From: an uncultured Ruminococcus sp.
GTDB lineage: Bacteria > Bacillota > Clostridia > Oscillospirales > Ruminococcaceae
Length of the DNA stretch: 64,000 nucleotides
Reading direction: 5' to 3'
NCBI RefSeq assembly: GCF_902762735.1
Contig: NZ_CACWPP010000001.1
Coordinates: 34,613 to 98,612, forward strand
Of this stretch, positions 16,972-42,743 are shown in pieces; within the stretch, counting starts at the first letter, position 1, and every line of letters starts with the position of its first letter. Under the pieces are notes generated by a model. It had not been told where the DNA came from, searched no databases, and worked only from the letters and a program-made list of their open reading frames with translations. The position numbers and the translations under genes were made by a program.

Positions 16972-17056
16972 CATTTATAATGGCAGTATTCAGCTTGCAG
17001 ATAAAGAATCGTGACCGCAAAGCCGATCGGAGCAAAAAGCGTTATCGCCAAAAAAA

Positions 17057-17159
17057 TATATCCCAATTTGGTTGTGTATTGTTCCCCAGCCGCAGGCGGG
17101 GGAACAATACGAAAGAACAGCCATTTTGTAACATCAGCAATACACATCAAAATTGGGAG
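17057..17159 (+). repeat. R1 repeat, copy b, interrupted by a 51-bp insertion
   Basis: atatcccaatttggttgtgtat [insert] acatcagcaatacacatcaaaattgggag. The flanks match copy a. Ends 34 nt before ATG 17193. Confidence 0.75.
17076..17110. repeat. P palindrome (GC core), copy 1, nested in R1 copy b
   Basis: gtattgttcccc agccgcaggcg ggggaacaatac: 12-bp perfect arms plus gcc/ggc pairing in the centre. The core tcccc-gccgcaggcggggga is shared with 52784-52820. Confidence 0.8.
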
Positions 17160-17192
17160 AAAAATATCTGTATTTTGCAAAAGGAGAAATCA

Positions 17193-18320
17193 ATGGATAA
17201 CAAGGTGTTAGATGATTTTGAAAAAGTTAATGATGTAAGTCCCGAGACTATCAAAAAATATGAGGGCATGCTGCCGCCGGAATGGGTAGAGTTCTGGAAA
17301 GAGTACGGCTACGGTTCGTTCATGGACGGATATTTCAGGGTGATAGATCCCGAAGAATATGAGGGGTTTTATAAGGAAAGCGTTATAATGCTGTACAAAG
17401 AAGTTCCGATACCTGTTATGGTAACTGCTTTCGGAGACATCATAGCTTTTATATCCAAATTTAAAGATGGTGAGCTGAAGTGGAGTCTGGAGTGCGTATA
17501 TTACAGATATATGCGCTACGAATTTTTTCTCCCATCGGTAGAGGATCTCTTTGAGGGTCTCAGCGAACCTAAAACTTATGGACGTGAAAGACAATATACG
17601 TTCATAAAGTATTCTGAGGCTGCTGAGAAACTCGGTAAACCAAAATACGATCAGTGTTTTGGGTATGAACCGATATTAACTAAGCGAAGCAAAGAAAAGC
17701 TGAAAGACCTTCGTATAGTTGATACTAAGGCTTACTTAAAAGCAGTTTTTGAGCAGAATGGGCAGGTAGAAGATCCTTTGCCCGACAATAAAGCAATAGA
17801 AGTCTCATATTTTGCAAAAACAGAAAAGAAGCCCAAGAGGGTGATCGTTGACAGCCCGTATGAGTTAAAGCCGATAAACGTACCTGCACTTAAATTCGAT
17901 AATTTCAATTTCAAATTATGTATCATACAGGTGCTTATGTATGAGAAAGAACTGCTTAGCCCCAAATTCGATATATATGAGTTTGCCAAGTATTACCCGC
18001 CGCGTGAGATAGATATAGATGAAGAAGGCTATGATCCGATAAAGCCTGCCATTGATTATTTTAAGAAACTTGAGATACCCGCATCTCTTGCACCTGAAGT
18101 CGAAGAGATCATAATGGACGGCGGAAATGATATTTATGGTCAGATATATCCGTTCTGGGACGGAGAGGATGGGTATTTTGACCTGAAAAGAGTTTCGGAT
18201 GAAGAGCTGTCGCAGTTTGCGGGTCTTAAACATATAGAACTTATGAACAGCCCTGAAAATATGGGCAAAACGCTGATAAACAGATTGAAGAAACACGGCA
18301 TCGAAATATCTAATTTATGA
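17193..18320 (+). CDS. GAD-like/DUF1851-type (SMI1/Tdi1-like immunity-family) protein with an uncharacterised C-terminal half
   Basis: ORF 16980..18320; start moved to ATG 17193 (AAGGAG 7 nt upstream), since the upstream part of the ORF runs through repeats. N-terminus LDDFEKVNDVSPETIKKYEGMLPPEWVEFWKEYGYGSFMDGYFRVIDPEEY resembles the GAD-like/DUF1851 pattern (recalled from memory, not searched). Confidence 0.6.
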   Translation: MDNKVLDDFEKVNDVSPETIKKYEGMLPPEWVEFWKEYGYGSFMDGYFRVIDPEEYEGFYKESVIMLYKEVPIPVMVTAFGDIIAFISKFKDGELKWSLECVYYRYMRYEFFLPSVEDLFEGLSEPKTYGRERQYTFIKYSEAAEKLGKPKYDQCFGYEPILTKRSKEKLKDLRIVDTKAYLKAVFEQNGQVEDPLPDNKAIEVSYFAKTEKKPKRVIVDSPYELKPINVPALKFDNFNFKLCIIQVLMYEKELLSPKFDIYEFAKYYPPREIDIDEEGYDPIKPAIDYFKKLEIPASLAPEVEEIIMDGGNDIYGQIYPFWDGEDGYFDLKRVSDEELSQFAGLKHIELMNSPENMGKTLINRLKKHGIEISNL

Positions 18321-20637: not shown

Positions 20638-21408
20638 TTAGCTTTCTCTCTGCTCGCCGACATTATTGCAGCTGTTCATGCAGCCGTTCGTTTCAAGTCC
20701 TCTGGGGAAAAATTCGTTGGTGGGGAAATCTATCTGCTCGAACATCTCGCAGGGAGTACCGCTTGATGATGTGCATTCCTTGCCAGGCACGCAGTAGTCA
20801 TAGACGGGCACCATCAGCGGAACGGGGCGTGAAAGCGAGATTATCGCGAACAGCCCCACCGTGACAAGCACTGTGCGCTCCCCTGTTTCGGGGTCTGCGG
20901 CGGTCAGCTTGGTGTCAAGGCACATGGGTTCGACAAGACTGACAGAAGCAGTCGGCAGTGTGCAAAGCGACTTGCAGCACGCACAGCCTGTTGTCGGCGA
21001 CTCCTGCGTGGTGACAAGCCCGCTGTCGGAAACAAATCGCTGTGTGCCGCCGTCACTGCCGTAGAGTATCACTTTCTTCGTGAAAGGCGCAGTGCCGTAC
21101 AACACCACAGGCGGCGTGCTGTCGCCGTTGTAGACCTCTATCTGTGCGCGGAAATTGTAAGTCACGTCCACCGAATAAAAACCCTGATTGAAAGCCACAG
21201 GGCTTATGCCGAAATTAACGTCCGTCACATCAATCGACTGTGTTTTGATGTAAGCCGCATCGTCGATGATCGCCTGATCCTCTGTGCTGAAAACGAATGT
21301 CAGGTCTTCGAGACAGTCCTGCGCACTGCACGAATCGAAAATGCGCATAGCGTCGATGCAGACAGCTTCTTTGAAACTGCCGTTTGGTCTGAAAATATTC
21401 TCGCTCAT
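20638..21408 (-). CDS. Hypothetical Cys-rich protein (256 aa)
   Basis: ORF 20638..21450; start moved to ATG 21408 (GGGAGG 7 nt upstream). 15 Cys including CACC and clustered C-terminal Cys. No signal peptide or TM. Confidence 0.7.
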   Translation of the reverse strand: MSENIFRPNGSFKEAVCIDAMRIFDSCSAQDCLEDLTFVFSTEDQAIIDDAAYIKTQSIDVTDVNFGISPVAFNQGFYSVDVTYNFRAQIEVYNGDSTPPVVLYGTAPFTKKVILYGSDGGTQRFVSDSGLVTTQESPTTGCACCKSLCTLPTASVSLVEPMCLDTKLTAADPETGERTVLVTVGLFAIISLSRPVPLMVPVYDYCVPGKECTSSSGTPCEMFEQIDFPTNEFFPRGLETNGCMNSCNNVGEQRES

Positions 21409-21482
21409 AAAATTACCTCCCGCGATGTGATATTGAAGTTTTGGCTTCACTACATCATATTCGCAAAAGGCAGACAGTGTGC

Positions 21483-21513
21483 AAAAAAGCTCTCCTTTTT
21501 ATGGGAGAGCTTT
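21483..21513 (-). terminator. Rho-independent terminator ending the his operon
   Basis: aaagctctcc / gggagagcttt stem. On the minus strand it is followed by a T-run. Confidence 0.75.
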
Positions 21514-21517
21514 CATT

Positions 21518-21856
21518 TTAAGTATTCTTGTCAACAGTCTTGAACTGCTTTAAGTTGCCGATCTTTTCGTTGCGCTCGTCAAGTACCTTCTCAACATCAG
21601 CCCAGTCAAGACCCTGATTTACTGCCAGCACCATCACATGGTACAGCAAATCGTTTATCTCGTTTTTCAGCTCGTCATTGTCGCCGTTTTTAGCCGCGAT
21701 TATAGTTTCGGCTGCCTCCTCGCCGACCTTCTTGCAGATCTTGTCAACGCCCTGCTGATACAGGTAGCATGTATAGCTCTTCTCAGGTGCTTCGCCCTTG
21801 TCGAACTGTTCCTTGCGTGCTTTCAGCACCTCAAATATCTCCTGATAAACTGTCAT
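21518..21856 (-). CDS. hisE: Phosphoribosyl-ATP pyrophosphatase
   Basis: 112 aa. ..SYTCYLYQQGVDKICKKVGEEAAETIIAAKNGDNDELKNEINDLLYHVMVL.. Confidence 0.9.
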   Translation of the reverse strand: MTVYQEIFEVLKARKEQFDKGEAPEKSYTCYLYQQGVDKICKKVGEEAAETIIAAKNGDNDELKNEINDLLYHVMVLAVNQGLDWADVEKVLDERNEKIGNLKQFKTVDKNT

Positions 21857-22218
21857 TATTTTTCCTCCTCATTATACATTTCCTTGAAAAAACAGCTGTA
21901 TGAACCTGTATGGCAGGCAACGCCTGTCTGCTCAACATTCACCAGCAGCGTATCATCGTCACAGTCACCGTAGATGGATACTACCTTTTGCAGATGTCCG
22001 CTGGTAGCGCCCTTGTTCCAGTATTCCTGCCTCGACCTGCTCCAGAACCATGTGTAGCCCGTTTCCAGCGTTCTTTTAAGGCTCTCCTTGTTCATGTAAG
22101 CCAGCATCAGCACCGTCTTTGTGTTGACCTCATAACATATCGCAGGTATCAGCTCACTCTTCACAAAATACTTGTCCAGATCATTTATGTCGATCTTGAT
22201 CTTATTATTATCAGCCAT
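21856..22218 (-). CDS. hisI: Phosphoribosyl-AMP cyclohydrolase
   Basis: ORF 21856..22287; start moved to ATG 22218 (GGAGGAG upstream). ..[54 protein letters not shown]. Confidence 0.9.
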
Positions 22219-22702
22219 TTTCTCCTCCGTCATTATCAAGATATTTTTCGGGAACATTGTAGCCGTTCGCCAGCAGGTCAGCCACATACTGCTTATCTTT
22301 CATGCGCTCCTCGCTCTCGGCAAGGAACTTCTGATTTGCCTTGTCCAGCGAGCCGCTCACTATACGGATATACTGTATGACACACCCGACTGTCGCGATG
22401 GGCAGCATCACCAGGAAACCAACCTGATAATTGGTATAGTACCCCAGTTCTCTCGTGGTGAACCTGTACCACATCACCACAAGCACCAGCAGTGCCGCAC
22501 ATATTATCCCCGATTTTTTATAGAGGTTCGGGTCGGTAGTCCTTTTATCGAACCCCTGTACCGCAGGCTCGCGATAACGCCTGTTCAGGTATTTCTGACC
22601 GCACTTTCGGCAAGTTCGTATGGGACTGCCGTACATATATGCATTGCACCTCTCGCGGTCCATCTTGCCGCAGTGAGGGCATTTTGCTTCGCTGTATCCC
22701 AT
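22211..22702 (-). CDS. Zinc-ribbon protein with two TM helices, unknown function
   Basis: ORF 22211..22726; start moved to ATG 22702 (GGAGTGAG upstream). CPHCG..(17)..CRKCG zinc ribbon. TM helices [14 protein letters not shown] and [19 protein letters not shown]. Acidic C-tail. The 3' end overlaps hisI by 8 nt. Confidence 0.7.
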
Positions 22703-22712
22703 GATAGATCTC

Positions 22713-23447
22713 TCACTCCGTTCCAAACAGCTTTGCTATCATTCTCTTCGGGTCGTTCAGGAAAGCCTTGCTGACGCTGACAGTTTCAGTCTCCTCATAG
22801 CGCCTGCGGGCTATCTCCCGCTCGTCAAGCTCATATATCAGCGCATCGGGATATGCCAGCAGTACAGGCGAATGTGTAGCTATGATAAACTGGGAGTTTT
22901 TTTGTACCAGTTTATTCATGCGTATCAGCAGACCCATCTGCCGCTGCGGTGAAAGCGCCGCCTCAGGCTCGTCCAGTATGTAAAGCCCGTCACCCCTGAA
23001 ACGGTTCATCACCAGCGCAAAAAAACTCTCACCATGCGACATCTCATGCAGTGAAACGCCGCCGTAGCTGTTCAACACCCTACTGCCTAAACTGTCGATA
23101 TAGCTTGCAGCATTGTAAAAACTCTCCGCCCGCAGGAAAAATCCGTCTCTCGGGCGCGAAAAGCTCTTTATGACCCGCAGATGTTCATACAGCGGCGAGT
23201 GCGTTTCATTGGTGGCAAAGCTGAAATTCCTGCTGCCGCCTTCGGGGTTGAAACCGAACGCCACAGCTATGCCCTCCAGCAAAGTAGACTTGCCTGTGCC
23301 GTTCTCGCCCACCAGAAAAGTCACACTGTTGTCAAAACTCAGCCCGCCCATATCGGCAAGGTGCTTCACGGCAGGCAGGTCAGCGATGTAACTCCGCTCG
23401 TCCTCCATGCCGAAAAGTTCGATACTGCGGATATATCCTCCGCCCAT
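22713..23447 (-). CDS. Stand-alone ABC/SMC-like (AAA_21-type) ATPase, 244 aa
   Basis: Walker A GENGTGKST, signature-like MSHGES, Walker B LYILDEPEAALSP, H-loop ATHSP. No transmembrane or substrate-binding partner. The start overlaps the hisF stop (TAATG). Confidence 0.85.
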   Translation of the reverse strand: MGGGYIRSIELFGMEDERSYIADLPAVKHLADMGGLSFDNSVTFLVGENGTGKSTLLEGIAVAFGFNPEGGSRNFSFATNETHSPLYEHLRVIKSFSRPRDGFFLRAESFYNAASYIDSLGSRVLNSYGGVSLHEMSHGESFFALVMNRFRGDGLYILDEPEAALSPQRQMGLLIRMNKLVQKNSQFIIATHSPVLLAYPDALIYELDEREIARRRYEETETVSVSKAFLNDPKRMIAKLFGTE

Positions 23448-24202
23448 TACCTCACGATGATGCCCTTGCTGCGGCAGTCAGCCTTTACCTCACCCACAGT
23501 CAGTTCGTGGAAATGGAACAGGCTTGCCGCCAGCGCCGCAGAACAGTCGGTCTTGAGGAAAGCCTCAGCAAAGTCGCCCAGCTTGCCCGCGCCGCCCGAT
23601 GCGATGACGGGTATTTTCACAGCGTCCACAACAGCTTTAAGCATCGGCAGGTCAAATCCGCCGCGCACGCCGTCAGTGTCTATGGAGTTCAGGCATATCT
23701 CGCCTGCGCCCAGCTGTTCGCACTTTTTCACCCAGTCGATCAGGTCTATCTTCATGTCGATGCGCCCGCCGTTGATGAAAACTGTCCACTTATTCTCCCC
23801 GACAGCCTTAGCATCAACACCCACGCAGATGCACTGACTGCCGAAAATATCAGCGCCGTCCTTTATAAGCTGAGGGTTCTGCACCGCCTGCGAGTTCACC
23901 GACACCTTGTCAGCGCCCGCTCTCAGCGTGTCGCGTATGTCATCAACAGTCTTGATGCCGCCGCCGACAGTCAGCGGAACGAACACCTTTTTCGCTGTTT
24001 CGCGAACAACGTCAAGCATAACTCCCCTGCCCTCATGGGACGCGGTTATGTCATAAAAAACTATCTCGTCAGCGCCCTGCTGATTGTACTCCATCGCACA
24101 GGCAACGGGGTCGCCGACTTCTTTTATTCCTTCAAAATTAACGCCCTTTACCACCTTGCCGTCACGCACGTCAAGGCAGGGTATTATTCTTTTAGCAAGC
24201 AT
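23447..24202 (-). CDS. hisF: Imidazole glycerol phosphate synthase cyclase subunit
   Basis: [32 protein letters not shown]...VPLTVGGGI...ASGGAG. Confidence 0.95.
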
Positions 24203-24211
24203 ATTTGCCTC

Positions 24212-24700
24212 CTATAAAAATCTGTTGTAATCCTCATCAATGCAGTCCATTTCATCGGACTCTTCTGCATAGCGCCATCTCAAAGACCTTGCGATAACAA
24301 AGGAGTCATTTGCTTTTTTCAGGTCTATGCCGAAATTTTCAAGATCGTTCAGCTGTCTGAAATCTGTCCAGACTATCACCCTGTCATCACGGGTCTTTCC
24401 CATGAGGTCTGTGCGGAACTCCAGCACACATTCGTGTATCTCAGATGAAGATCTTTCACAATATCCCTGCACAGCATGGTAGACCACTCCGCTGAAAAGC
24501 ATCTCTATCCTGCCTAACCACCCGCTGTCAACAGTGAGCAGAAGAGCATTGTCAGGCGCAGAAACTATCATCATATCGCCGTCTGTGTTATGACAGCCGC
24601 TTACATAATTTACCGAAACTATGACCGAATCGTGCAGACTGCCGTTTTTTTCCATAAAATCGTCAATATCTGCCTGTGTGTTTATCTCACGCCAGCTCAT
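24212..24700 (-). CDS. Hypothetical acidic cytoplasmic protein (162 aa) at the position normally held by hisA
   Basis: ATGA overlap with hisH. The stop lies 10 nt upstream of the hisF ATG. No recognised motif. Too small for a (beta-alpha)8 HisA. Confidence 0.7.
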   Translation of the reverse strand: MSWREINTQADIDDFMEKNGSLHDSVIVSVNYVSGCHNTDGDMMIVSAPDNALLLTVDSGWLGRIEMLFSGVVYHAVQGYCERSSSEIHECVLEFRTDLMGKTRDDRVIVWTDFRQLNDLENFGIDLKKANDSFVIARSLRWRYAEESDEMDCIDEDYNRFL

Positions 24701-25305
24701 ACATTCAGCTCAGCAAAATTCTTCAGTATTTTCAGACCCGTTTCGCCGCTTTTCTCAGGGTGGAACTGACAGCCGTAAACGAACTTTCCATCGCCCACCA
24801 CCGCAGGCACTTTCGAGCCGTAGGTGCAGTAAGCGTACAAATTTTTGTCCTCGCAGAAAGCCTTGTAGCTGTGTACGAAATATACATATTCCTCGTTGCC
24901 CAGCCCGTCAAACAGGCGGCAGTCGCGGTTGTATTCCAGCTTGTTCCAGCCCATGTGAGGTATCACCAGTCCTGGATCTGTTATCCTGTCAACATAACCG
25001 CCGACCATGCCAAGCCCCGCGCACTCTTCAAACTCATAACTCTTGTCAAATATGAGCTGCATGCCCAGACAGATGCCCATGAAAGGCTTCACCTGTGCCT
25101 GCGCCTTTATAGTATCCACCAGCCCGCTGACTTTCAGCATGTTCATCGCCCACGGGAAAGCCCCAACGCCCGGCAGTATCACTCTGTCAGCGGCGATGAT
25201 GTCCTCTTTTTTGTCAGTCAGCTTATTTTCATAACCCAGATGGTCGAGCGCATTTTTCACCGAGAAAATATTGCCCGCACCGTAGTCAACTATCGCTATC
25301 ATCAC
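24697..25305 (-). CDS. hisH: Imidazole glycerol phosphate synthase glutaminase subunit
   Basis: MIAIVDYGAGNIFSVKNALDHLG...GICLGMQL...VQFHPEKS-type motifs (CQFHPEKSGETG). Confidence 0.95.
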   Translation of the reverse strand: MMIAIVDYGAGNIFSVKNALDHLGYENKLTDKKEDIIAADRVILPGVGAFPWAMNMLKVSGLVDTIKAQAQVKPFMGICLGMQLIFDKSYEFEECAGLGMVGGYVDRITDPGLVIPHMGWNKLEYNRDCRLFDGLGNEEYVYFVHSYKAFCEDKNLYAYCTYGSKVPAVVGDGKFVYGCQFHPEKSGETGLKILKNFAELNV

Positions 25306-25880
25306 AGCACTCCTTTTGTCGAAAGCACGCCCTTGCCCGTTTCAGTCATAGCGTCCTTCAAAGCATGCGCCACCGCCTTGAACATCGCTTCGATGATGTG
25401 GTGGTCGTTCTTGCCGTATTCTTCTCTGATATGCAGTGTTATGCCTGAATTAAAGGCAAATGCGCGGAAGAATTCCTCCGTCAGGCAGGTGTCGAAATTT
25501 CCGCACCTGTCATCATGGAACTCAGCGTCAAACACCAGAAAAGGTCTGCCGCTTATATCCAGCGAGCAGAAACTCAGCGCTTCGTCCATCGGCACATAAG
25601 CCGAACCGTACCGCGCGATACCTCCCTTGTCGCCCAGCGCTTCCGCAAAAGCCTTGCCGATGCAGATGCCTGTGTCCTCCACCGAATGGTGGGCATCAAC
25701 ATAAAGGTCGCCGTCGCACTTTACAGTCAGGTCAATGCCGCTGTGTACGCCGAAGGCTGTCAGCATGTGGTCAAAAAAACCGATGCCCGTATTTATATCG
25801 ACTTTCCCGCTGCCGTCAAGGTCAACGAACACCTCTATGTCCGTTTCGCGGGTCTTTCGTTTTATCTCTGCTTTTCTCAT
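25302..25880 (-). CDS. hisB: Imidazoleglycerol-phosphate dehydratase (monofunctional)
   Basis: 192 aa. RKTRETDIEV..GIGFFDHML..HHSVEDTGI..GKNDHHIIEA. No HAD phosphatase domain. Confidence 0.95.
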   Translation of the reverse strand: MRKAEIKRKTRETDIEVFVDLDGSGKVDINTGIGFFDHMLTAFGVHSGIDLTVKCDGDLYVDAHHSVEDTGICIGKAFAEALGDKGGIARYGSAYVPMDEALSFCSLDISGRPFLVFDAEFHDDRCGNFDTCLTEEFFRAFAFNSGITLHIREEYGKNDHHIIEAMFKAVAHALKDAMTETGKGVLSTKGVL

Positions 25881-25925
25881 TTAAATCACCATTTTCTAAC
25901 AAATGCACCGTCAGTCGGTCGTTTT

Positions 25926-27185
25926 TCACCATATAACATAGTCAGCAGGCGCTTCTACGCTAAGTGTGCCGAAGGCAAGTTCCTCTTCCTTCACGCCGCT
26001 TTTGAGAGCTTTCATCGCGCTTTCAAAACGTGCGCTCATCGAGAATATGTTCTGGTTGAACTCATCGCAAGGCTTGTTCTTTTCAAGGAAAGACTCCACC
26101 TCAGACTTTATGACCCTCATCGGCGAGATCTGGAACTCAGTCAGTTCAAGCTCTCTGTCGCCTATCTTCATGCTGACCAGTCCCGTGCCCTTTATCTTGA
26201 AAAACCACTGCACATATATCTCTGGCAGGAAAGTCATTACCTCCCACGCCGAATGTGCATCGCCTGTGACCGCCTGCACCTTTCTGAACAGTTCATTATA
26301 AGATTCCAGCACCGACGACTGCCCCATCAGCGGTATGCACTGACGGATATACTTGTACATATTATTGTACGCATCATTGTATTTCGGCTTTACTCTGACA
26401 TATGTCCTGTCAGACTGCACTATCAGCTTCTGCTCCTGCACCTGCCCGCAGATCCCCTCAGTGAAATACCTGCGTGCCTTATCCTCGACCAGTTCTGACA
26501 GCCTGCCTATCTCTTCGTTGTTTATCCTGCACTTTGCCGACACATGGTCGCCGCTGTACAGCGCTTCCATACTCAGCCAATAGTACTTCTTAGCCCCGAG
26601 ATATGCTGGCAGTTCGTCCTCTATCTCGCTGTAAAAGCCCTTTATTTCCTGCAAATCAGGAGCGCCTACACAGCTTACCATGCTTTCTGTTTCATACCTG
26701 TATACATGCGCTCTGCCGTCAAAATAATTCTCTATCAGGTCATCGTCAGCACCGTCTATCAGTTCAAACATATCATTCAGTATCGCCGCGAATTTCTTTA
26801 CCGCACCTGCAACAGCGCCGTTTATAGTTTCACCGATGCTGTCATAGTGCTCGGTAAGAAGCGTTTCGGCATTTGGCAGTGCTATGAAAAAGCGCACCTC
26901 AGCTGTATACGGATTTTTCGTCCTGTTGTCGGAGAGCAGCGTTTTAGCCTCCAGCAATGTCACCTCAAAATCATACTTTGGATATGTCACCTGTATCTTA
27001 TTGCGCACACCGCCTGTGGTGTTCTCCAACAGCGTCCTTATCGCCACTTCGTCTTTTGTGAACGAAGTGTTTTTGGTAGCTTTTGCCAGTCTTTCAAACT
27101 GGCTCGCCTCTGAGCCGTTCTTTTTTGCGCCTGCCTTCACCATGCTGACAGCCGCTTTCAGTACGAATGTTTCCAGCAGTCCCAT
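25926..27185 (-). CDS. Hypothetical cytoplasmic protein (419 aa) between hisD and hisB
   Basis: ORF 25926..27305; start moved to ATG 27185 (AGAGAGGG upstream). No TM, no PLP-lysine aminotransferase motif, no other motif I recognise. Confidence 0.65.
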   Translation of the reverse strand: MGLLETFVLKAAVSMVKAGAKKNGSEASQFERLAKATKNTSFTKDEVAIRTLLENTTGGVRNKIQVTYPKYDFEVTLLEAKTLLSDNRTKNPYTAEVRFFIALPNAETLLTEHYDSIGETINGAVAGAVKKFAAILNDMFELIDGADDDLIENYFDGRAHVYRYETESMVSCVGAPDLQEIKGFYSEIEDELPAYLGAKKYYWLSMEALYSGDHVSAKCRINNEEIGRLSELVEDKARRYFTEGICGQVQEQKLIVQSDRTYVRVKPKYNDAYNNMYKYIRQCIPLMGQSSVLESYNELFRKVQAVTGDAHSAWEVMTFLPEIYVQWFFKIKGTGLVSMKIGDRELELTEFQISPMRVIKSEVESFLEKNKPCDEFNQNIFSMSARFESAMKALKSGVKEEELAFGTLSVEAPADYVIW

Positions 27186-27347
27186 TATTTTCCCTCTCTT
27201 TATGTTCCCCTTGTGTACACAACACATTTGCAATATGAACGCATATACGGCGATGTCATCTTTCCCGCGCCGCTGCGCAGCAAAGATGACCGCCGCCATT
27301 ATCAAACGTACATGAAATGCTCTTTGTTTCTGTGTGTAAACAGTACG

Positions 27348-28640
27348 TTATTCAAATCTTACCTTTATCGCATTAGCGTGTGCAGTCAGACCCTCTTTTT
27401 CAGCCACAAGAACTATATCGTCCTTAGCCTTGCGCAGAGCGTCCTCCGTGTAGTAGATGAAGCTGGAGCGCTTCTCAAAGCTGTTCACGCCCAGCGGCGA
27501 GAAAAATCTTGCAGTGCCGCTTGTGGGAAGAACGTGGTTCGGACCCGCGTAATAGTCGCCGAGCGGTTCGGAAGCATACTGCCCCAGAAATACCGAGCCT
27601 GCATTGTCAAGCCTGCCCACATATTCCAGCGGGTTCTCAAACAGGACTTCCAGGTGTTCGGGCGCACATCGGTTAGCCATATCAACAGCCTCGTCCTTAG
27701 TGTTGCAGATTATCATAGCACCGTAGTTCTCCAGCGAGTACCTGATAATATCTTTTCTCTCCAGATATTCCATCTGACGCTCTATTTCAGCAATAGTTTC
27801 ATCAGCCAGCTTCTCGCTGGTGGTAACGAGTATCGCAGATGCCAGCTTGTCGTGTTCAGCCTGCGACATAAGGTCTGCCGCAACGAACTTGGGCTTTGCT
27901 GTTTCGTCAGCCATTACCAGTATCTCGCTGGGACCTGCCACCATGTCTATATCGACCACGCCGTAAAGCAGTTTCTTTGCAGTTGCAACGTAGATGTTTC
28001 CGGGACCTACTATCTTATCGACCTTAGGTATTTCCTCAGTTCCGTAAGCAAGTGCCGCGATAGCCTGTGCGCCGCCTGACATGAAAACTCTGTCAACGCC
28101 GCAAAGACCTGCTGCGACCAGTATATCCTTATTAGGTGTACCGTCCTTGAGAGGAGGTGTCACCATGATTATCTCCTTAACGCCTGCTATCTTAGCGGGA
28201 ACAGCGTTCATCAGCACTGAAGAAGGGTAAGCCGCCGTACCGCCCGGCACGTAAAGACCCACCTTGTCAAGACCTCTCACCTTCTGTCCCATGATACAGC
28301 CGTCAGCCTTAGCGTTGACAAAACTCTGGGACTTCTGCCTCTGGTGGAAATCTGTGATGTTCTCGATGGCATTGAGCAGAGCCTCAACAAAAGCGGGGTC
28401 TGCATCAGTCATAGCATCGTTTATTACTTCACGGGGAACTTCGTAATACTGGGGCAGTTTGCCGTCAAACTTCTCGGTGTACGCCTTTACTGCGCTGTCA
28501 CCGCCCTCTCTTACAGTTTCGATTATCTCGTTTACGACTGCGGAAACTTTCTTGTCAGTTTCGCCGCTTCTCTTTTCCAGCTGCTTGAAAAACTCGACCT
28601 CGTCCTTGCCGTTTACGTAGATCTTCTTGATAAATGACAT
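27348..28640 (-). CDS. hisD: Histidinol dehydrogenase
   Basis: ORF 27348..28682; start moved to ATG 28640 (AAGGAGGAG upstream). ..LMSQAEHD.. ..CAPEHLEV.. ..GDYYAGPNHVLPT.. Confidence 0.95.
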   Translation of the reverse strand: MSFIKKIYVNGKDEVEFFKQLEKRSGETDKKVSAVVNEIIETVREGGDSAVKAYTEKFDGKLPQYYEVPREVINDAMTDADPAFVEALLNAIENITDFHQRQKSQSFVNAKADGCIMGQKVRGLDKVGLYVPGGTAAYPSSVLMNAVPAKIAGVKEIIMVTPPLKDGTPNKDILVAAGLCGVDRVFMSGGAQAIAALAYGTEEIPKVDKIVGPGNIYVATAKKLLYGVVDIDMVAGPSEILVMADETAKPKFVAADLMSQAEHDKLASAILVTTSEKLADETIAEIERQMEYLERKDIIRYSLENYGAMIICNTKDEAVDMANRCAPEHLEVLFENPLEYVGRLDNAGSVFLGQYASEPLGDYYAGPNHVLPTSGTARFFSPLGVNSFEKRSSFIYYTEDALRKAKDDIVLVAEKEGLTAHANAIKVRFE

Positions 28641-28653
28641 TTCTTTCTCCTCC

Positions 28654-29286
28654 TTACAGATTTTTTTCCACCAGCGTGACAAAATTCTCTATCTCGCTCT
28701 GGCGCATCTTCATACTAACTGTATTTACTATCAGTCTTGCAGATATGGGGCAGATGTTGTCCTCGATTATCTCCAGACCGTTTTCTTTCAGTGTAGTGCC
28801 TGTTTCAACTATATCAACGATACCGTCAGCCAGTTCCAGCAAAGGTGCCAGTTCTACCGAACCCTCTATCTTGATTATGTCCACGTCCATGCCCTTGCTC
28901 TCAAAATGCTTGCGGGTGATGTTCGGGTACTTTGTCGCGACGGTCTTTACGTTGTAGCCGCCGTAAAAGCTCTGACCCTTTTTGGCAGCAAGTGCAAATC
29001 TGCATTTGCCGAAGCCCAGATCCACCAGTTCATAGAACTTGCCCTGCATCTCCTGAATGGTATCCTTGCCGACAACGCCCATGTCGCACACGCCGTGCTC
29101 AACATACGTTATAACGTCGTTAGCCTTAGCCAGCACGACCTCCAGATTGCCGTCAGGGACAGGCAGTATCAGCTTTCTGCCCTTTTCGCGAATGGCTGTG
29201 CAGTCATAGCCTATCTTCTCCAAAAGACCAACAGTATCTTTTTCCAGTCTGCCCTTAGTAAGAGCAATTCTCAAAGGTTTATTCAT
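28654..29286 (-). CDS. hisG: ATP phosphoribosyltransferase, short form
   Basis: 210 aa. LRIALTKGRLEKDTVGLLEKIG. Short HisG lacks the C-terminal regulatory domain, consistent with the adjacent hisZ. Confidence 0.95.
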   Translation of the reverse strand: MNKPLRIALTKGRLEKDTVGLLEKIGYDCTAIREKGRKLILPVPDGNLEVVLAKANDVITYVEHGVCDMGVVGKDTIQEMQGKFYELVDLGFGKCRFALAAKKGQSFYGGYNVKTVATKYPNITRKHFESKGMDVDIIKIEGSVELAPLLELADGIVDIVETGTTLKENGLEIIEDNICPISARLIVNTVSMKMRQSEIENFVTLVEKNL

Positions 29287-29309
29287 CTCACTTTTCCTCC
29301 CGATCGCCC

Positions 29310-30509
29310 TTATATCTCATTTTCGGTGATGTCCTCACCGACTCTGATGACTTTCTTTATGCCCTTTGACTTGGCATACTCCACAGTTTCCTCGTAGGAG
29401 TTGAACAGCGAATGCTCGACCTTGCTGCCCTCGCGCACCAGCTTCTGTGCATAAGCCATAGCTTCTACCACAAAACCCTTGTCGCCGAAGATAACAGCGT
29501 CAACGGGCTTGCCAGCGGGACTTGCGCCGATCCTTTCGAGATGCAGTGCCACCGAGTCAACATTCACGCCGAAGCCGACTGCGGGCATTTCCTTGCCGAA
29601 AGAACCTATCAGATTGTCGTATCTGCCGCCTTTCAGCACCGACTGTCCCACTTCGGACAGATAGCCCTTGAACACGATGCCTGTGTAGTAATCGGTATGG
29701 CTCACGATACCGAGATCGACGGATATTTTGCCCTCATATCCCAGACTTGACAGCCTGTTGAACACCTGTCTCAGGTTATAGAGAATGCCTGTTATCTTGT
29801 CGTTTGCATATATATCGCTCGCCTTGTCAAGGACATCGACCCCGCCGAACAGGCTTGGAAGCTGTTTCAGTGCGCGGGTGATGTCATTGTCGCCTATCTC
29901 GTCCAGCAGGTCGTTGAGCGCAGGGAAATTCTTTGAAGATATGAGCAGTCTGATCTCCTCGATGACATCTTCATCAAGGTTCAGCTGAGCCACCAGCTCC
30001 TTAAAATAGCCGATATGACCTATCTCCAGCCTGAAATTCTCCTTGTCGAAACTAGCCAGCGCCTCAACAGCGGTACACAGCACCTCCAGATCGGCACGCT
30101 TTTCATTATCGCCGCCTATCAGCTCGATACCTGCCTGTACCACCTCATCAGATCTGCCTTTGAGCAGTGCATTGTTTGAGAAAACGCTCTGATTATAGTA
30201 AAGTCTCAGCGGTGTGTCAGACTCTTTCAGTCTTGTTGCCGCCAGCCTTGCTATCGGTATGGTAGAATCGGGGCGCAGAACTATCAGCCTGCCCTTTGAA
30301 TCGGTCAGTTTATAAAGGCTCTCCTGCCTGAAATTTCTCGTACTGCCGCTGAAAGCATCATAAAACTCGATACCCGGAGTGACTACCTCACTGTAACCGA
30401 AGCCCTCAAACAGCGCCGCCAGAGTCTTCTCCACCTTGCGCCTTGCAAGGCAGTCCTCAAACAGCAGATCTCTTGTACCCTCAGGGGTTATAAGGTCATA
30501 TCTTTTCAT
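29310..30509 (-). CDS. hisZ: ATP phosphoribosyltransferase regulatory subunit (HisRS paralogue)
   Basis: 399 aa, class-II aaRS-like core. Directly upstream of short-form hisG as first gene of the his operon. Confidence 0.8.
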   Translation of the reverse strand: MKRYDLITPEGTRDLLFEDCLARRKVEKTLAALFEGFGYSEVVTPGIEFYDAFSGSTRNFRQESLYKLTDSKGRLIVLRPDSTIPIARLAATRLKESDTPLRLYYNQSVFSNNALLKGRSDEVVQAGIELIGGDNEKRADLEVLCTAVEALASFDKENFRLEIGHIGYFKELVAQLNLDEDVIEEIRLLISSKNFPALNDLLDEIGDNDITRALKQLPSLFGGVDVLDKASDIYANDKITGILYNLRQVFNRLSSLGYEGKISVDLGIVSHTDYYTGIVFKGYLSEVGQSVLKGGRYDNLIGSFGKEMPAVGFGVNVDSVALHLERIGASPAGKPVDAVIFGDKGFVVEAMAYAQKLVREGSKVEHSLFNSYEETVEYAKSKGIKKVIRVGEDITENEI

Positions 30510-30649
30510 ACTATCTTTCCTTTATGTAAAATAATTTATAGTAAACCGAACATCTTCGATCAGACCGATACTATGTCTTGACAATTCTTTATCGGTGGCA
30601 TTTTATCATAGTAAAGTGCTAACATAGTATCATAGTATCAACATGATAT

Positions 30650-30678
30650 ATTTTAGCATACTGACAAAGATTTGTCAA
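30650..30678 (-). promoter_or_regulatory. Sigma-A-type promoter of the his operon
   Basis: Minus strand TTGACA (30673-30678), 17 nt, TAAAAT (30650-30655). Implies a ~130-nt leader before the hisZ ATG 30509. Confidence 0.6.
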
Positions 30679-30717
30679 CCGATTTGTGCAAAAAAGCAGA
30701 ACCAACTTGTAAATTAA

Positions 30718-31743
30718 CTATGAACGCCCATCCGAGTTTTCTGCGTACTCGTCATAAAAAACTCTTTCGCTACCCTCTGCATCGGTGATATAACAATAAC
30801 TTATCCTGCCTGACGCATCACAGGAAACTATCCCATATTGCTTGTTTTCATCATCAAATGCCAGTTCATAGCAATAGTCATTTCTCAGGATCCCGTTTTC
30901 AAACCCAAAGAGATCCCTGATGTCGTTTATGTCTTTTACTTCATGTGACTTATTCATAAAATCATCTGCTGAAACATTGTTTCCATAATCAACAAACAGC
31001 CACGCATTTCCGTCAACACTTCTTGAGGTCAGTTCATACTCGGGTGGCGAACCCAGAAGATACGGTCTGTAACGGGTCACGTATTCATCAAGCCCAAGAT
31101 CAATATCCTTCCGGGCTATCAAAATATGTGACGAATAGTCAAATTCGGGAGCATTCGCCGTATCGTCCTTCGCGCCGTTAGAAAGTTCCCAATAATCAAA
31201 AGCCGCGCAGGCAGCCTCATCAAAGATATAAAAATATGACAGTCCCTCTTTTTCGGGGTAAGGTTCACATTTTGCATAGCCGCTCATAAACGCATAATAG
31301 TATTTTCCGTTGCAGTTTATCTGCTTGTAATGCCGTGTTATAGGCATTGTGAGCTTACCGTTATCAGTCCCCCAGCCACTGTCTAACCTATCTTTCTCAT
31401 ATTCCAGTTCTGCAAGACCGTCAGGCACATTCTTTATAAATTCATCTAACTGCTCTTCAAAACCATCTTTTTGCTGTACTTCTTCCGAGAACAGTTTGCG
31501 CAGTTTTTCTTTATCCCCGCTCTCGGCGGCTGTCATAACATCTTTAATTATCTTTCCCGCATCAGGTCTTGGTGAGTGATAATCATTCCATTCATCGCGA
31601 AAATCTGCATAGGAATTATCAGCGTTCATTCTGTCTTCCACTACATATTTAACACCTTTAAATATATTGCACGATGATAAACAAACCGCACTCACCGTTA
31701 CCATAGCAAGCAATAAAGATTTTTTCAGACCACTACCAATCAA
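30718..31743 (-). CDS. Hypothetical lipoprotein (341 aa)
   Basis: TTG start after GGAGA. Lipobox CLSSC. Looks AT-rich by eye. No recognised domain. Confidence 0.7.
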   Translation of the reverse strand: MIGSGLKKSLLLAMVTVSAVCLSSCNIFKGVKYVVEDRMNADNSYADFRDEWNDYHSPRPDAGKIIKDVMTAAESGDKEKLRKLFSEEVQQKDGFEEQLDEFIKNVPDGLAELEYEKDRLDSGWGTDNGKLTMPITRHYKQINCNGKYYYAFMSGYAKCEPYPEKEGLSYFYIFDEAACAAFDYWELSNGAKDDTANAPEFDYSSHILIARKDIDLGLDEYVTRYRPYLLGSPPEYELTSRSVDGNAWLFVDYGNNVSADDFMNKSHEVKDINDIRDLFGFENGILRNDYCYELAFDDENKQYGIVSCDASGRISYCYITDAEGSERVFYDEYAENSDGRS

Positions 31744-31763
31744 ATATATTTCTCCGTTTTTTC

Positions 31764-34700
31764 TCAGAAATTAAACAGCGATATCTGGCTCGACTTCGGC
31801 AAGTCACCGAACGCACCGATGTTCTCCAGCGCTTCAACGACTGCTTTGGTAACACCGCTGTCGCTCTGGAACTCTTCTATCGAGATAAAGTCGTTCTTCT
31901 GCGCTTTTTCGTATATGGCTATCGCCGCATTCACGCCGACACCGTTTATCGCACAGAACGGCAGTCTTATCTTGCCGTCCTCAATCTGGTAGATGAAAGC
32001 GTGTGACTTGTTTATGTCTATCGGCAGAAATTCATAGCCGCGCGACATCATCTCATTGGTCAGCATCAGCATATCCAGCACGCCGCTGTCCTTGCCCGAA
32101 CGCTCGTCCTTTGACATATTGCTCAGCTTGTCTATCTTGTCGCGCACCATGTAGATGCCTTTCAGCGTAGTTTCAGCATCAAAGTCCTCGCCGCGCACCG
32201 TGAAATACGTAGCGTAGAACGCCAGCGGCTCATGCACCTTGAACCAGCACAGTCTTATCGCCGCCGTTACGTATGCCGCCGCGTGCGCTTTCGGGAACAT
32301 GTACTTTATCTTCAGGCAGCTGTCAATGTACCACTCAGGAACATCATGCGCCCTCATATCCTGCTTCATCTCTTCTGTCAGCAGTTTTGGCGCTTTACCC
32401 TTACGGGTTATCTCCATTATCTTGAACGCCAGCTTTGGTTCAAGGTGATGTTCCAGCAGATACACCATGATACTGTCACGGGTACCTATAACGTTGGAAA
32501 TATCACAGGTGCCGTTTTTGATGAGTTCCTGTGCGTTGCCCAGCCATACGTCAGTACCGTGTGAAAGTCCCGAGATTTGCAAAAGGTCGGAGAAATTCTT
32601 CGGCTTTGACTCCAGCAGCATTCCTCTTACGAAAGGCGTACCCATTTCGGGTATGCCCAGCGTGCCTGTTTCGCACCTGATGTCCTCAGGCTCAACGCCC
32701 AGCGATTTGGGCGATGTGAACAGCGAGTACACAGCAGGATCCGACATGGGGCACTCGTTTATGTCCATGTGAGTGAAGTCTTCGAGGTACTTATACATCG
32801 TAGGTACATCGTGACCCAGCTCGTCCAGTTTAAGAATGGTATCGTGCAGTGAATGGAAGTCAAAGTGAGTCGTGACCATGTCCGAGTCTGCCTTGTCAGC
32901 AGGGTGCTGAACAGGCGTGAAGTCATACACCTCATAGTCACCCGGTATAACGACCATTCCTCCGGGGTGCTGTGAAGTCGTTCTCTTAACATCGACACAG
33001 CCGTTTACAAGCCTCTGTATCTCAGCGGGGCAGGCTGTCTTGCCGCGCTCATCGAGGTATTTTTTCACATATCCGTAAGCGGTCTTATCAGCCACCTTGC
33101 CGATAGTTCCCGCCTTGAAAACGTGATCCTCACCGAACAGTTCTTCGGTGTATTTATGTACCTTAGACTGACAGTCGCCCGAGAAGTTAAGGTCTATATC
33201 AGGCGCTTTATCGCCGTCAAATCCAAGGAATGTTTCAAACGGTATCTTGTGACCGTCGCGGTGCATCGGTATGCCGCAGTTAGGGCAGTCCTTAGGCGGC
33301 AGGTCAAATCCCGAACCGTACTCACCGTTCTCAAAGAACTCCGAATAGTGGCACTTTCGGCAGATATAGTGCGGTTCAAGCGGATTTACCTCCGATATGC
33401 CCGACATTGAAGCTACGAATGACGAACCTACCGAACCACGCGAACCGACCTGATAGCCGCACTGATTAGAGTACGCCACCAGCTTCTGCGAGATCATGTA
33501 CAGCACCGAGAAACCGTGTTTGATTATCGAGTCAAGCTCACGTTTAAGGCGCTTGAACACCAGCGGGTGGACATGCTCCTCAAAATAAGCCGAAACGTCC
33601 ACATCTTCGCCCTCAGGCACTTCTATTGACATCGGGTCGCAGTCGCCGTAAAGTTCACACGCTTTGCGCCAGCAGATTATCTGCAATTCGTACACCGCAC
33701 CCTCAATGAAAGGCGTATATGTCCCCACAGGGAAAGCCTTCAGGTCGGGGTCTATCATGTCAGCCACGTTGTTAGTGTTGGTGACCACCACTTCGTAAGC
33801 CTTTTCCTTGCCGAGATATGCCAGTTCATCAAGCATCTGGGTTGTTGATTTCAGGTAGAGCGGTGCCTGATTGTCGCAGTCGGTAAAGCCCATAGAAGCC
33901 TGTATTATCGCCCTGAATTTAGCATCTTCCCTGTTGAGGAAATGCACGTCGCCCGTCGCACAGACAGGTATGCCCAAGTCATTTCCCAGCCTTACGATAA
34001 AGCGGTTAATATCCTTGACATCTTCTTCGGTGCGTATCCTGTCATAAGGCGGCTTTTCGGCGGTCAGCATGAACATGTTATTGCCGTCGGGCTGTATCTC
34101 CAGATAGTCATAGAAGCTGGCTATCTGCTTTATCTCATCATAGCTTTTGCCCTCAAGATAGGCTTGTATGACCTCGCCCCTCTCGCAGGCGCTTCCCAAT
34201 ATCAGACCCTCGCGCAGTTTTGTCAGTTCGCTTTTGGGTATGCGCGGGCGGCGCTTGAAATATTTGAGATTTGAGTAGGATATGAGCTTATAAAGATTTT
34301 TCAGCCCTATATTGTTCCTCACCAGTATTATCTGGTGGTAAACATCTTTCGCCTCTGTTACGCGGTCTGTCTCGCCCAGCAGACCATTCAGCATATCTAC
34401 GGTTATCAGCACCAGCGGGAACTGTTCCATGAGCATTTTGGCAAGTTCAATGAATATCTTGCCCAGCACTTCAGCATCGTCACAGCCGCGATGATGCTGG
34501 AAGTCGCCATACCCGAAATGCTCAGCCACAAAATTCAGCTTATGCTTTTCAAGCTGAGGGAGCATCAGCTGTGACATCGGCACAGTGTCTATGCTCGAAA
34601 ACTCGAACTTTATGCCTTCCCTTTCACAGGCATGCTTTATAAAGCCCGTGTCGAAAGGCGCATTGTGCGCCACAAGGCAGGGCTTTTCTCCGCAGAACTC

Positions 34701-36274: not shown

Positions 36275-37312
36275 TTATAGCTTTTCTATCTCATCCATCA
36301 GTGCTTTCAGCGCCTTGTCCTCAGAAACCGTATACAGTTTTTTGCCGTGAGCGAATATAACAGCCTGTCCGACACCTCCCGCGATGCCTATATCAGCCTC
36401 GCCCGACTCACCGATACCGTTGACTACACAGCCCATGACCGCGACCTTAATATCCTTATCAACATTCTTTGTCATTTCCTCCACCTGCTTTGCCAGACCT
36501 ATCAGGTCTATGCGCGTCCTGCCGCAGGTAGGACATGAAACTATCTGCACGCCGCTCCCTCTGCCAATGGCTTTGAGTATATCCTTTGCGGCGTATATCT
36601 CCTTTTCGGGATCGTCTGTCAGCGAAACTCTTATGGTTTCGCCTATTCCGTCAATCAGCAGTGAACCTATCCCCACCGCCGACTTTATTATGCCCATGCG
36701 CTCGGTACCCGCCTCTGTAACGCCAAGATGAAGCGGATAATCGCACATCTTCGACAGTTTGCGGTAAGCCTCTACCATTATATTCACATCAGATGATTTT
36801 ATCGAAATGACTATCTCATTGAAGTCGCACTGTTCCAGTATCCTGACATGCCCCATCGCACTCTCGACCAGCGCATCTGCACAGGGCTTGCCGTATTTTG
36901 CCAGCAGTTCCTTTTCCAGCGAACCGCCGTTCACGCCTATCCTTATCGGTATGCCTTTTTCGGTACACTTTTTGACAACAGCTTTCACCCTGTCCATATC
37001 ACCGATATTTCCGGGATTTATGCGTATCTTGTCTATGCCTGCATCAGCCGCCGCCAGTGCCAGCTTGTAGTCAAAATGTATGTCCGCCACCAGCGGTATG
37101 CTTATCTTCTCCTTTATCGCAGGGATAAGCGCCACAGCCTCCATATTCGGTATGGCGGCGCGGACTATCTCACAGCCCGCCTTTTCAAGCCTTACCGCCT
37201 GTTCTACCGAACCCTCGATGTCGGTAGACGGCACGTTCAGCATCGACTGGATATATATATGCTTTCCGTCAAGCGTCGATCCGCCGACCTTAACGGGTCT
37301 GACATTTCTCAT
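36275..37312 (-). CDS. ispG: 4-hydroxy-3-methylbut-2-enyl-diphosphate synthase
   Basis: 345 aa. VKVGG..IQSMLNV.. and C-terminal 4Fe-4S ligand context SCPTCGRT..MGCVVNG. Confidence 0.95.
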   Translation of the reverse strand: MRNVRPVKVGGSTLDGKHIYIQSMLNVPSTDIEGSVEQAVRLEKAGCEIVRAAIPNMEAVALIPAIKEKISIPLVADIHFDYKLALAAADAGIDKIRINPGNIGDMDRVKAVVKKCTEKGIPIRIGVNGGSLEKELLAKYGKPCADALVESAMGHVRILEQCDFNEIVISIKSSDVNIMVEAYRKLSKMCDYPLHLGVTEAGTERMGIIKSAVGIGSLLIDGIGETIRVSLTDDPEKEIYAAKDILKAIGRGSGVQIVSCPTCGRTRIDLIGLAKQVEEMTKNVDKDIKVAVMGCVVNGIGESGEADIGIAGGVGQAVIFAHGKKLYTVSEDKALKALMDEIEKL

Positions 37313-37325
37313 TTTAAGCTCTCCT

Positions 37326-38261: not shown

Positions 38262-38264
38262 GCC

Positions 38265-40474: not shown

Positions 40475-40542
40475 AAAAACAACCTCTGTCAAAAACGTTC
40501 AAAAGGGGTAAGCCCGTTTGCAGACCTGCCCCTCGAAAATAT

Positions 40543-41427: not shown

Positions 41428-41430
41428 TCC

Positions 41431-42159: not shown

Positions 42160-42167
42160 CAGTCACC

Positions 42168-42722: not shown

Positions 42723-42743
42723 GATCTGTATTCCTTTCGTGAT

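Follow-up and report, generated by a model that had tools for sequence, protein, structure and literature searches.

A probable Ruminococcus albus-type histidine operon with four embedded passenger genes

The operon and its closest described counterparts

Histidine operons in which the his genes are interspersed with open reading frames (ORFs) of other kinds occur in Lactococcus lactis and Corynebacterium glutamicum. Closer to the organism considered here, the his operon of Ruminococcus albus 8 has been written as '?-hisZGD-??-BH-?-F-????-(IE)E' (Ashniev et al. 2022, PMC9413887 Additional files 2 and 4); its '?' genes are tabulated in the supplementary files, and no discussion of them was found in the available parts of that article. 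The present work concerns a 64-kb stretch of DNA from an uncultured Ruminococcus sp. (contig NZ_CACWPP010000001.1; called the window below), in which a his cluster interspersed with four other ORFs occupies positions 21483-30678. Very probably, this locus is the core his operon of the R. albus group, presumably repressed by HisR, with hisA and hisC relocated and four unrelated passengers in variable slots.

The region comprises 12 genes according to the ORF listing, one fewer than the initial annotation had counted, all on the minus strand and in the order hisZ-hisG-hisD-(419 aa)-hisB-hisH-(162 aa)-hisF-(244-aa ATPase)-(163-aa Zn-ribbon membrane protein)-hisI-hisE. Eight of them were identified as his genes through Pfam and NCBIfam, with scores far over the thresholds (Table 1), and these assignments, together with the ORF order, bear out the mosaic gene order first proposed for the locus as well as its monofunctional hisB. 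The core of a HisR-type Firmicutes his operon is present as one co-directional cluster: hisZ, a short hisG, hisD, the dehydratase gene hisB, hisH, hisF, hisI and hisE. Since the same arrangement recurs at 99-100% identity in at least four independent assemblies (L001-L004, where L numbers denote loci), among them the metagenome-assembled genome (MAG) GCA_003529985.1, it is not an assembly artefact. In that MAG (L002, DPTV01000219.1), hisG, hisD, hisF and the ATPase gene are fragmented or truncated relative to the window and the three other assemblies, which suggests consensus errors in that MAG.

Table 1. Features of the his cluster, in window coordinates
Feature	Position	Strand	Evidence or remark
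Promoter, TTGACA-17-TGcTAAAAT, extended TG	30650-30678	-	best promoter-like site of the region, 11/12
Predicted HisR operator TTTGTCAGTATGCTAAAATA, overlapping the -10 box	30649-30668	-	20-mer identical to the R. albus 8 his-operon HisR site
Predicted second HisR-type operator CACTTTACTATGATAAAATG, 5' leader	30599-30618	-	1 mismatch to the published consensus cacTTTAnnnnnnTAAAgtg (PMC9413887, supplementary data)
hisZ, regulatory subunit of ATP phosphoribosyltransferase	29310-30509	-	TIGR00443, 304 bits (cut-off 272)
hisG, short form	28654-29286	-	TIGR00070, 206 bits; PF01634
hisD, 430 aa counted from ATG with Shine-Dalgarno	27348-28640	-	PF00815, 583 bits; start read from sequence
Passenger 1, 419-aa ORF with DUF6348 domain	25926-27185	-	PF19875, 36.1 bits (cut-off 27.7)
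hisB, monofunctional imidazoleglycerol-phosphate dehydratase (dehydratase domain only)	25302-25880	-	NF002111, 290 bits, residues 1-192
hisH	24697-25305	-	TIGR01855, 230 bits
Passenger 2, 162-aa alpha+beta protein of an uncharacterised family	24212-24700	-	no Pfam or NCBIfam match; AlphaFold2 model
hisF	23447-24202	-	TIGR00735, 358 bits; 95% identity to R. albus AR67 HisF
Passenger 3, 244-aa minimal ABC/SMC-head ATPase (AAA_21)	22713-23447	-	PF13304, 69 bits
Passenger 4, 163-aa Zn-ribbon membrane protein	22211-22702	-	CxxC...CxxC and two hydrophobic segments read from translation
hisI	21856-22218	-	PF01502, 124 bits
hisE	21518-21856	-	PF01503, 80 bits
Intrinsic terminator after hisE	21483-21513	-	hairpin 21486-21513, 11-bp stem with 5 GC pairs, then TTTTTTG on the minus strand

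The locus was compared with its relatives through a HisF scan with one genome per species, which gave 80 Ruminococcus/Oscillospiraceae loci on each of which the his genes were mapped. In a neighbour-joining tree of HisF, the window, R. albus AR67, strains FC2018 and FB2012 and a large number of rumen MAGs group together as one coherent clade. According to the published additional files, R. albus 8 has the same core order, the same predicted HisR site in the promoter, hisA and hisC outside the operon, and unassigned genes wherever the window has passengers, namely following hisD, in the hisH-hisF interval and in the hisF-hisI interval. These slots contain 2/1/4 passengers in R. albus 8 versus 1/1/2 in the window, and the identity of the passengers probably differs as well; the related isolate R. 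albus AR67 shares only the Zn-ribbon ORF, at 74%.

The canonical Firmicutes operon, hisZGD(C)BHAF(IE), which is also found in insert-free Ruminococcus relatives (L088-L099, L187-L191), has the same enzymes in the same order as the window. These relatives and the window further share polC upstream, a gene for a Cys-rich protein of 270 aa downstream, HisZ with a short HisG, and a monofunctional HisB. The window departs from the canonical form in lacking hisA and hisC, in its four foreign ORFs and in its separate hisI and hisE. Roseburia and other Lachnospiraceae also have hisA and hisC away from the main his operon, but in Roseburia hisH and hisF lie in a separate operon and hisI-hisE is fused, whereas the window keeps hisH and hisF in the main operon (PMC7478625). 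The 'alien' or ORFan genes described in operons (PMC10138114) are likewise unrelated, co-directional ORFs embedded in a biosynthetic operon; measured against that concept, the genus of the window shows an unusually high density and turnover of such genes (62 of 80 species, dozens of families). The interspersed ORFs remarked on in the initial annotation therefore have published support, both in the Ruminococcaceae tables (PMC9413887, supplementary files) and in the general concept of alien genes. Clearly, the locus is not a new pathway variant, for its layout is widespread in the genus and has been tabulated before, for R. albus 8.

The absent hisA and hisC and the ORF between hisH and hisF

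A tblastn search of all 64 kb of the window with HisA of E. coli and T. maritima and HisC of E. coli revealed neither hisA nor hisC, no HisA-like sequence besides hisF was found there, and none of the ten window ORFs of 226-294 aa matched a PHP/HisJ-type phosphatase in Pfam. The absence of hisA, hisC and histidinol-phosphatase that had been described for the locus thus extends to the entire window. The accompanying view, that hisA between hisH and hisF is close to invariant, fares less well: hisA is missing from that position in about 33 of the 80 loci, and Roseburia carries both hisA and hisC outside its his operons (PMC7478625). Every member of the R. albus-type clade lacks hisA and hisC in the operon, and no HisA-like sequence was found within 10 kb at any locus of the clade. 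There, the slot between hisH and hisF occurs in three states: empty, hisH and hisF being -1 to 5 nt apart and the end of hisH containing the hisF Shine-Dalgarno; occupied by a methyltransferase-like ORF of 245-272 aa; or occupied by the 162-aa ORF, which stands in the window instead of hisA. The operon includes no histidinol-phosphatase gene in any locus examined.

Published tables exist for the nearest cultured relatives. In the SEED-based table of Ashniev et al. (2022; PMC9413887 Additional files 2 and 4), R. albus 8 has HisA as peg.346, HisC as peg.3323 and HisJ as pegs 2760 and 3600, with the operon at pegs 2889-2875; R. bicirculans, whose operon is given as 'hisZGDBHFIE', has HisA as peg.365, HisC as peg.1266 and HisJ as peg.591 (PMC9413887, supplementary files). 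On the strength of these tables and of Roseburia, relocation of hisA is on record for the closest cultured relatives and is no rarity among Clostridia. It would follow the same course here: hisA and hisC would have left the operon in the R. albus-group lineage, and these two genes and the phosphatase gene would be expected elsewhere on the chromosome, as the published table has it for the relatives. The histidine pathway is almost certainly complete, with hisA, hisC and hisJ elsewhere, and automated 'missing hisA' calls in MAGs of this clade should therefore be read as relocation, not auxotrophy.

The 162-aa protein belongs to a family with 286 cluster representatives at E<=1e-3, of which 75 members were compared with Pfam without a match; the window protein has no Pfam or NCBIfam match either. 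Occasional fusions to DUF3885, Cys_rich_CPCC and GNAT domains are found in the family. An AlphaFold2 (AF2) model built from 75 sequences reached a predicted local distance difference test score (pLDDT) of 89 and a predicted template modelling score of 0.86, and it shows one N-terminal helix packed on an antiparallel sheet; an earlier model from 7 sequences was unusable (pLDDT 57). No significant match was found in the PDB by fold (Foldseek) or by sequence, the lowest Foldseek E being 0.12 and the highest-probability match an uncharacterised Neisseria protein (5v77, probability 0.66). Homologues lie directly before hisF at 41-49% identity in R. flavefaciens-type species and at 56-88% in other R. 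albus-type species, and a distant family member was found beside a GH26 gene, outside any his context.

Could the inserted ORFs be recruited histidine enzymes, with the 162-aa protein (or the methyltransferase-like protein of relatives) in place of HisA and the 419-aa protein in place of HisC or the histidinol-phosphatase? Such a substitution was implied in the initial annotation, and it would agree with the 162-aa ORF occupying the exact hisA slot with translational coupling on both sides, with its close homologues always adjoining hisF, and with the absence of hisA, hisC and the phosphatase gene from the window. Against it stand the relatives with an empty hisH-hisF junction, where nothing occupies the slot, and those with a methyltransferase-like ORF there. 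The 162-aa family and hisA are not mutually exclusive in distribution: they occur together in R. flavefaciens-type loci, and both were found in L058, L067, L083, L087, L114 and L183. Moreover, the 162-aa protein has no PF00977 match, its AF2 fold is a small alpha+beta one and not a (beta-alpha)8 (TIM) barrel of about 240 aa, its distant relatives sit in unrelated contexts or are fused to other domains, the 419-aa protein lacks an aminotransferase or phosphatase signature, and HisA, HisC and HisJ are annotated at distant positions in R. albus 8 and R. bicirculans. Because it has no TIM barrel and coexists with hisA elsewhere, the 162-aa protein is not a HisA substitute; no passenger is a histidine enzyme, and recruitment in any of these forms is extremely unlikely.

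A different role for the 162-aa family would be that of an accessory factor of the HisH/HisF synthase, acting in regulation, assembly or protection and hence glued to the 5' end of hisF. The position upstream of hisF is kept in both R. albus-type and R. flavefaciens-type species despite identities of 41-56%, and the ORF is translationally coupled, as such a factor might be. However, it is present in a minority of species, unrelated genes also use the same slot, and a distant family member lies outside his operons. It also evolves about nine times faster than HisF: within one genome pair its nonsynonymous substitution rate (dN) is 0.34, that of hisF 0.04 and that of hisH 0.05. Its position would also be accounted for by recombination via the highly conserved hisF flank, or by a gene that descended vertically and was lost in places. 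A dedicated partner of HisF is a very improbable reading. Relocation of hisA, with an unrelated gene in the slot, remains the preferred account.

Several further searches were directed at hisA. Ruminococcus HisA compared by tblastn with the PLSDB plasmids, including the R. albus megaplasmids, gave no Ruminococcus match, and HisF likewise gave none. A homologue search with R. bromii HisA returned 120 matches, all at least 77% identical, and hisA was in-operon in each of the seven contexts inspected. A HisA profile run on Joint Genome Institute (JGI) metagenomes returned 80 loci and one apparent orphan, L128, in which phage terminase, portal, head-morphogenesis and truncated capsid genes abut a Ruminococcus hisA at the end of a metagenome contig (1-6685). 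It was rejected as an orphan hisA in view of a near-identical, in-operon protein (P0092) and of the phage genes abutting at the contig end; L128 is probably an assembly chimera, the less likely alternative being a prophage that sits within a his operon. No his genes occur in the supplement to the transcriptome paper on R. albus 7, and a literature search on R. albus auxotrophy was unproductive.

Two other arrangements were seen around these genes. Many metagenome contigs of gut Clostridia (L142-L145, L154-L181) show the converse of the window layout: their operon reads hisZGD(C)B-hisA-hisI-hisE and lacks hisH and hisF. The 270-aa Cys-rich protein, which has no family match, is encoded just past the his terminator (20638-21450, minus strand), and nearly all related loci, with inserts or without, have a homologue downstream of hisE or hisI at 34-79% identity. 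This gene was rejected as a phosphatase candidate, since it matches no family, is separated from the operon by the terminator and accompanies operons of every type.

The passengers as genes and their turnover in Ruminococcus

All four passengers are real genes: purifying selection acts on them, although their rate of evolution is several times that of the his genes. Each has its own phyletic pattern, which makes them separate cassettes and not parts of one system. In the 419-aa protein, the DUF6348 domain spans residues 128-275 of a 459-aa reading, equivalent to about 88-235 of the 419-aa form; no PADLOC, PHROG or PDB match was found. One MAG (L045) has a homologue of 33% identity in the same slot after hisD, with a ratio of nonsynonymous to synonymous substitution rates (dN/dS) of about 0.34 at saturation. 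The ATPase matches ABC_tran (PF00005) at 26.9 bits against a cut-off of 25, AAA_21 being the better match, and its gene has a dN/dS of about 0.15. The ORF beside it, where an ABC transporter would have a permease, has two hydrophobic segments only and is absent next to most of the ATPase homologues. Homologues of 52-67% identity lie in the same slot after hisF in eight loci (L040, L041, L045, L071, L072, L081, L083, L116). The 163-aa ORF, with its zinc ribbon at the N terminus, has no match in Pfam, NCBIfam, PADLOC or PHROGs; the latter two gave nothing for three of the four passengers. Its homologue in R. albus AR67 (L008) occupies the same slot before hisI, and the gene has a dN/dS of 0.10 and a dN of 0.17, compared with 0.03 for hisF in the same genome pair.

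The adjacency of the ATPase and the Zn-ribbon membrane protein, 10 nt apart, raises the question of whether the two form a defence or toxin-antitoxin-like module that was inserted as a unit between hisF and hisI. The ATPase does match the PADLOC models AriA, PtuA and GajA in addition to AAA_21, but these matches are limited to the nucleotide-binding ends (Walker A and signature/Walker B, residues about 36-65 and 127-215), and the protein measures 244 aa where the defence models are 370-630 long. As a Septu, PARIS or Gabija-type defence protein it was rejected: there is no full-length match and no nuclease partner, its neighbours being hisF and the Zn-ribbon membrane ORF. The ATPase is found without that ORF in L045, L071, L072, L081 and L083, and that ORF is found without the ATPase in L008; the two therefore do not make up a module, and a joint defence system is highly unlikely. 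The reading of the two as independent passengers is retained.

A mobile cassette of the integron, insertion sequence (IS) or transposon kind was also considered and rejected. Repeats flanking the cassettes are at chance level only, there is no compositional break (GC 0.45-0.53 in the inserts versus 0.45-0.57 in the his genes), and neither the ORF listing nor Pfam reveals a recombinase gene in the cluster. The initial annotation had argued for long-standing co-expression, and its time scale stands for at least two of the inserts, which are old: homologues of the ATPase (52-67%) occur after hisF, and homologues of the 162-aa protein (41-56%) before it, in species whose HisF is only about 80% identical. 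It had also held that canonical hisA and hisC elsewhere, together with clear assignment of the four ORFs to unrelated families, would make these genes mere hitch-hikers. The former is the case in the closest cultured relatives; a clear assignment to an unrelated family, by contrast, exists for only two of the ORFs.

Variation of this kind is found across the genus. In some relatives the operon is tight and free of inserts, running polC|hisZ-G-D-C-B-H-A-F-I(-E) and then the conserved 270-aa gene, whereas most loci show gaps of 250 to more than 4000 bp at hisD|hisB/C, hisH|hisA, hisA|hisF or hisF|hisI. The ORFs inserted there (at least 60 aa) are co-directional in 174 cases and antisense in 19, and at least one co-directional insert in a gap of more than 200 bp is present in 62 of the 80 loci. 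They cluster into dozens of unrelated families. Read from representative sequences, these include GNAT (23 members in three slots), cytidine-deaminase-like, class-I methyltransferase-like, tyrosine-phosphatase-like and flavodoxin-like proteins, along with many small membrane proteins. In one metagenomic locus (L101, 6486-7730), precomputed Pfam matches place Imm51, Macro and SdpI genes in tandem between hisF and hisI. The four accessory genes of the window thus fill inter-gene slots whose cargo varies across the genus.

Two loci deserve separate mention. L101 also has a DUF6440 ORF and an 85-aa ORF between hisD and hisB. The largest insert encountered, 4.4 kb long and made up of about 6-8 co-directional ORFs, separates hisH from hisF in an Oscillospiraceae MAG (L051, 5640-10000); read from their translations, the ORFs include deaminase-like, NUDIX-like, methyltransferase-like and carbamoyltransferase-like proteins.

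Expression of the cluster and embedded genes in other operons

The passengers are most likely transcribed from the his promoter, judging by their co-directional arrangement and by the translational coupling of three of them to their neighbours. The 162-aa ORF shares an ATGA overlap with hisH, and its stop codon TAG lies inside the hisF Shine-Dalgarno (TAGGAGG), 9 nt ahead of the ATG. The hisF and ATPase genes share a TAATG overlap, the Zn-ribbon ORF overlaps hisI by 8 nt, and hisI and hisE again share TAATG. At the 419-aa ORF, the gap to hisB is 45 nt and that from hisD is 162 nt. The junctions had been called operon-tight at the outset; the overlaps are as described and most junctions imply translational coupling, but the junction between hisD and the 419-aa ORF is loose. 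The single promoter and single terminator said to bracket the cluster are both confirmed, the former as the highest-scoring site of the region and the latter as a hairpin with a T-run.

Regulation can be read from the same promoter. The HisR site given for R. albus 8, tttgtcagtatgctaaaata (PMC9413887 Additional file 4), recurs without a mismatch in the window, where it overlaps the -10 box, with 0 occurrences expected by chance, and a second site of the same type lies in the leader (Table 1). The operon is most likely repressed by HisR with histidine, as far as these predicted operators indicate; in R. albus 8, the hisR gene is itself at a distant locus (peg.1254; PMC9413887, supplementary files). 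No T-box or other Rfam element was found at E<=1 in 21000-31800, a search in which a His-rich leader peptide was not separately sought. The his leader also contains repeated ACTATGATA / CATAGTATC motifs (30567-30641).

It is also conceivable that the cluster consists of several transcription units, with inserts such as the 419-aa ORF carrying their own promoters and splitting the his genes into sub-operons. A promoter-like site of 9/12 in the 162-nt gap and another of 11/12 inside hisZ would suit that arrangement. Nonetheless, promoter-like sites are only moderately more numerous than expected from shuffled sequence (21 found versus 13.2), none of the candidate internal terminators is convincing (12 found versus 9.3 expected), and all other junctions measure -8 to 45 nt, so that sub-operons appear unlikely. 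The passengers would instead ride on the his promoter.

Some points weigh against the account of a single R. albus-type operon with relocated genes and unrelated passengers. Within the 64 kb examined, hisA, hisC and hisJ have not been located in this genome itself, and whenever an R. albus-group hisA outside the operon was sought, the hisA genes that came up were all in-operon. All the close 162-aa homologues found adjoin hisF on its upstream side, and so constant an adjacency could reflect a functional link to imidazole-glycerol-phosphate synthase. Co-transcription is deduced from gene spacing, and the weak promoter-like site ahead of the 419-aa ORF lies at the loosest junction. Finally, the insert counts come from mechanical ORF calls, some of which may be spurious.

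Two other operons of the window carry embedded genes. The genes pheS (13340-14359) and pheT (10268-12679) are normally adjacent, but here a 186-aa membrane ORF with a weak DUF308 match (12710-13270) lies between them, co-directional on the minus strand, with gaps of 69 and 30 nt. Between rseP and ispG, in the series pyrH-frr-uppS-cdsA-dxr-rseP-ispG (36275-43454, minus strand), lies an ADP-ribosylglycohydrolase gene (37326-38261) with gaps of 3 and 13 nt; enzymes of this kind often serve as immunity against ADP-ribosylating toxins. This genome seems to embed foreign ORFs in its housekeeping operons habitually, and the his mosaic would therefore be one instance of a genome-wide style and not a histidine-specific adaptation. 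A further candidate is the gene for a 341-aa DUF5104 protein with a signal-peptide-like N-terminus (30718-31743, minus strand), which begins 20 nt past the polC stop and ahead of the his promoter. It too looks like an insertion, because polC passes directly to hisZ after about 65 nt in the insert-free relatives L088 and L094.

It is tempting to propose that conserved Ruminococcus operons (his, pheST, rseP-ispG and the 3' end of polC) systematically serve as landing pads for accessory genes that are small, evolve fast, and are both co-directional and coupled in translation; such genes would arrive and be replaced without a mobile-element signature, possibly by recombination through conserved flanks. 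A narrower version would make the 162-aa family a genuine partner of HisF. The proposal is tentative and somewhat doubtful at this stage. Several embedded genes do resemble immunity, detoxification or modification functions, by Pfam (Imm51, SdpI, Macro, ADP-ribosylglycohydrolase) or by reading of the sequence (GNAT-like, deaminase-like). If true, landing pads would be a distinct and undescribed way to organise and express an accessory genome; if general, embedding of this kind would explain how accessory or immunity-type genes that lack promoters of their own are expressed, and the entry of new genes into operons could be studied in a clean natural setting. The remaining interest of the locus lies in this genus-wide, strongly co-directional turnover of passengers in conserved operons, at junctions that, where read, are tightly coupled.

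About 3 kb from the his operon, on the plus strand (16980-18320), the window also encodes a 446-aa protein with GAD-like, T6SS_Tdi1_C and DUF6892 domains, an architecture of the immunity-protein type.

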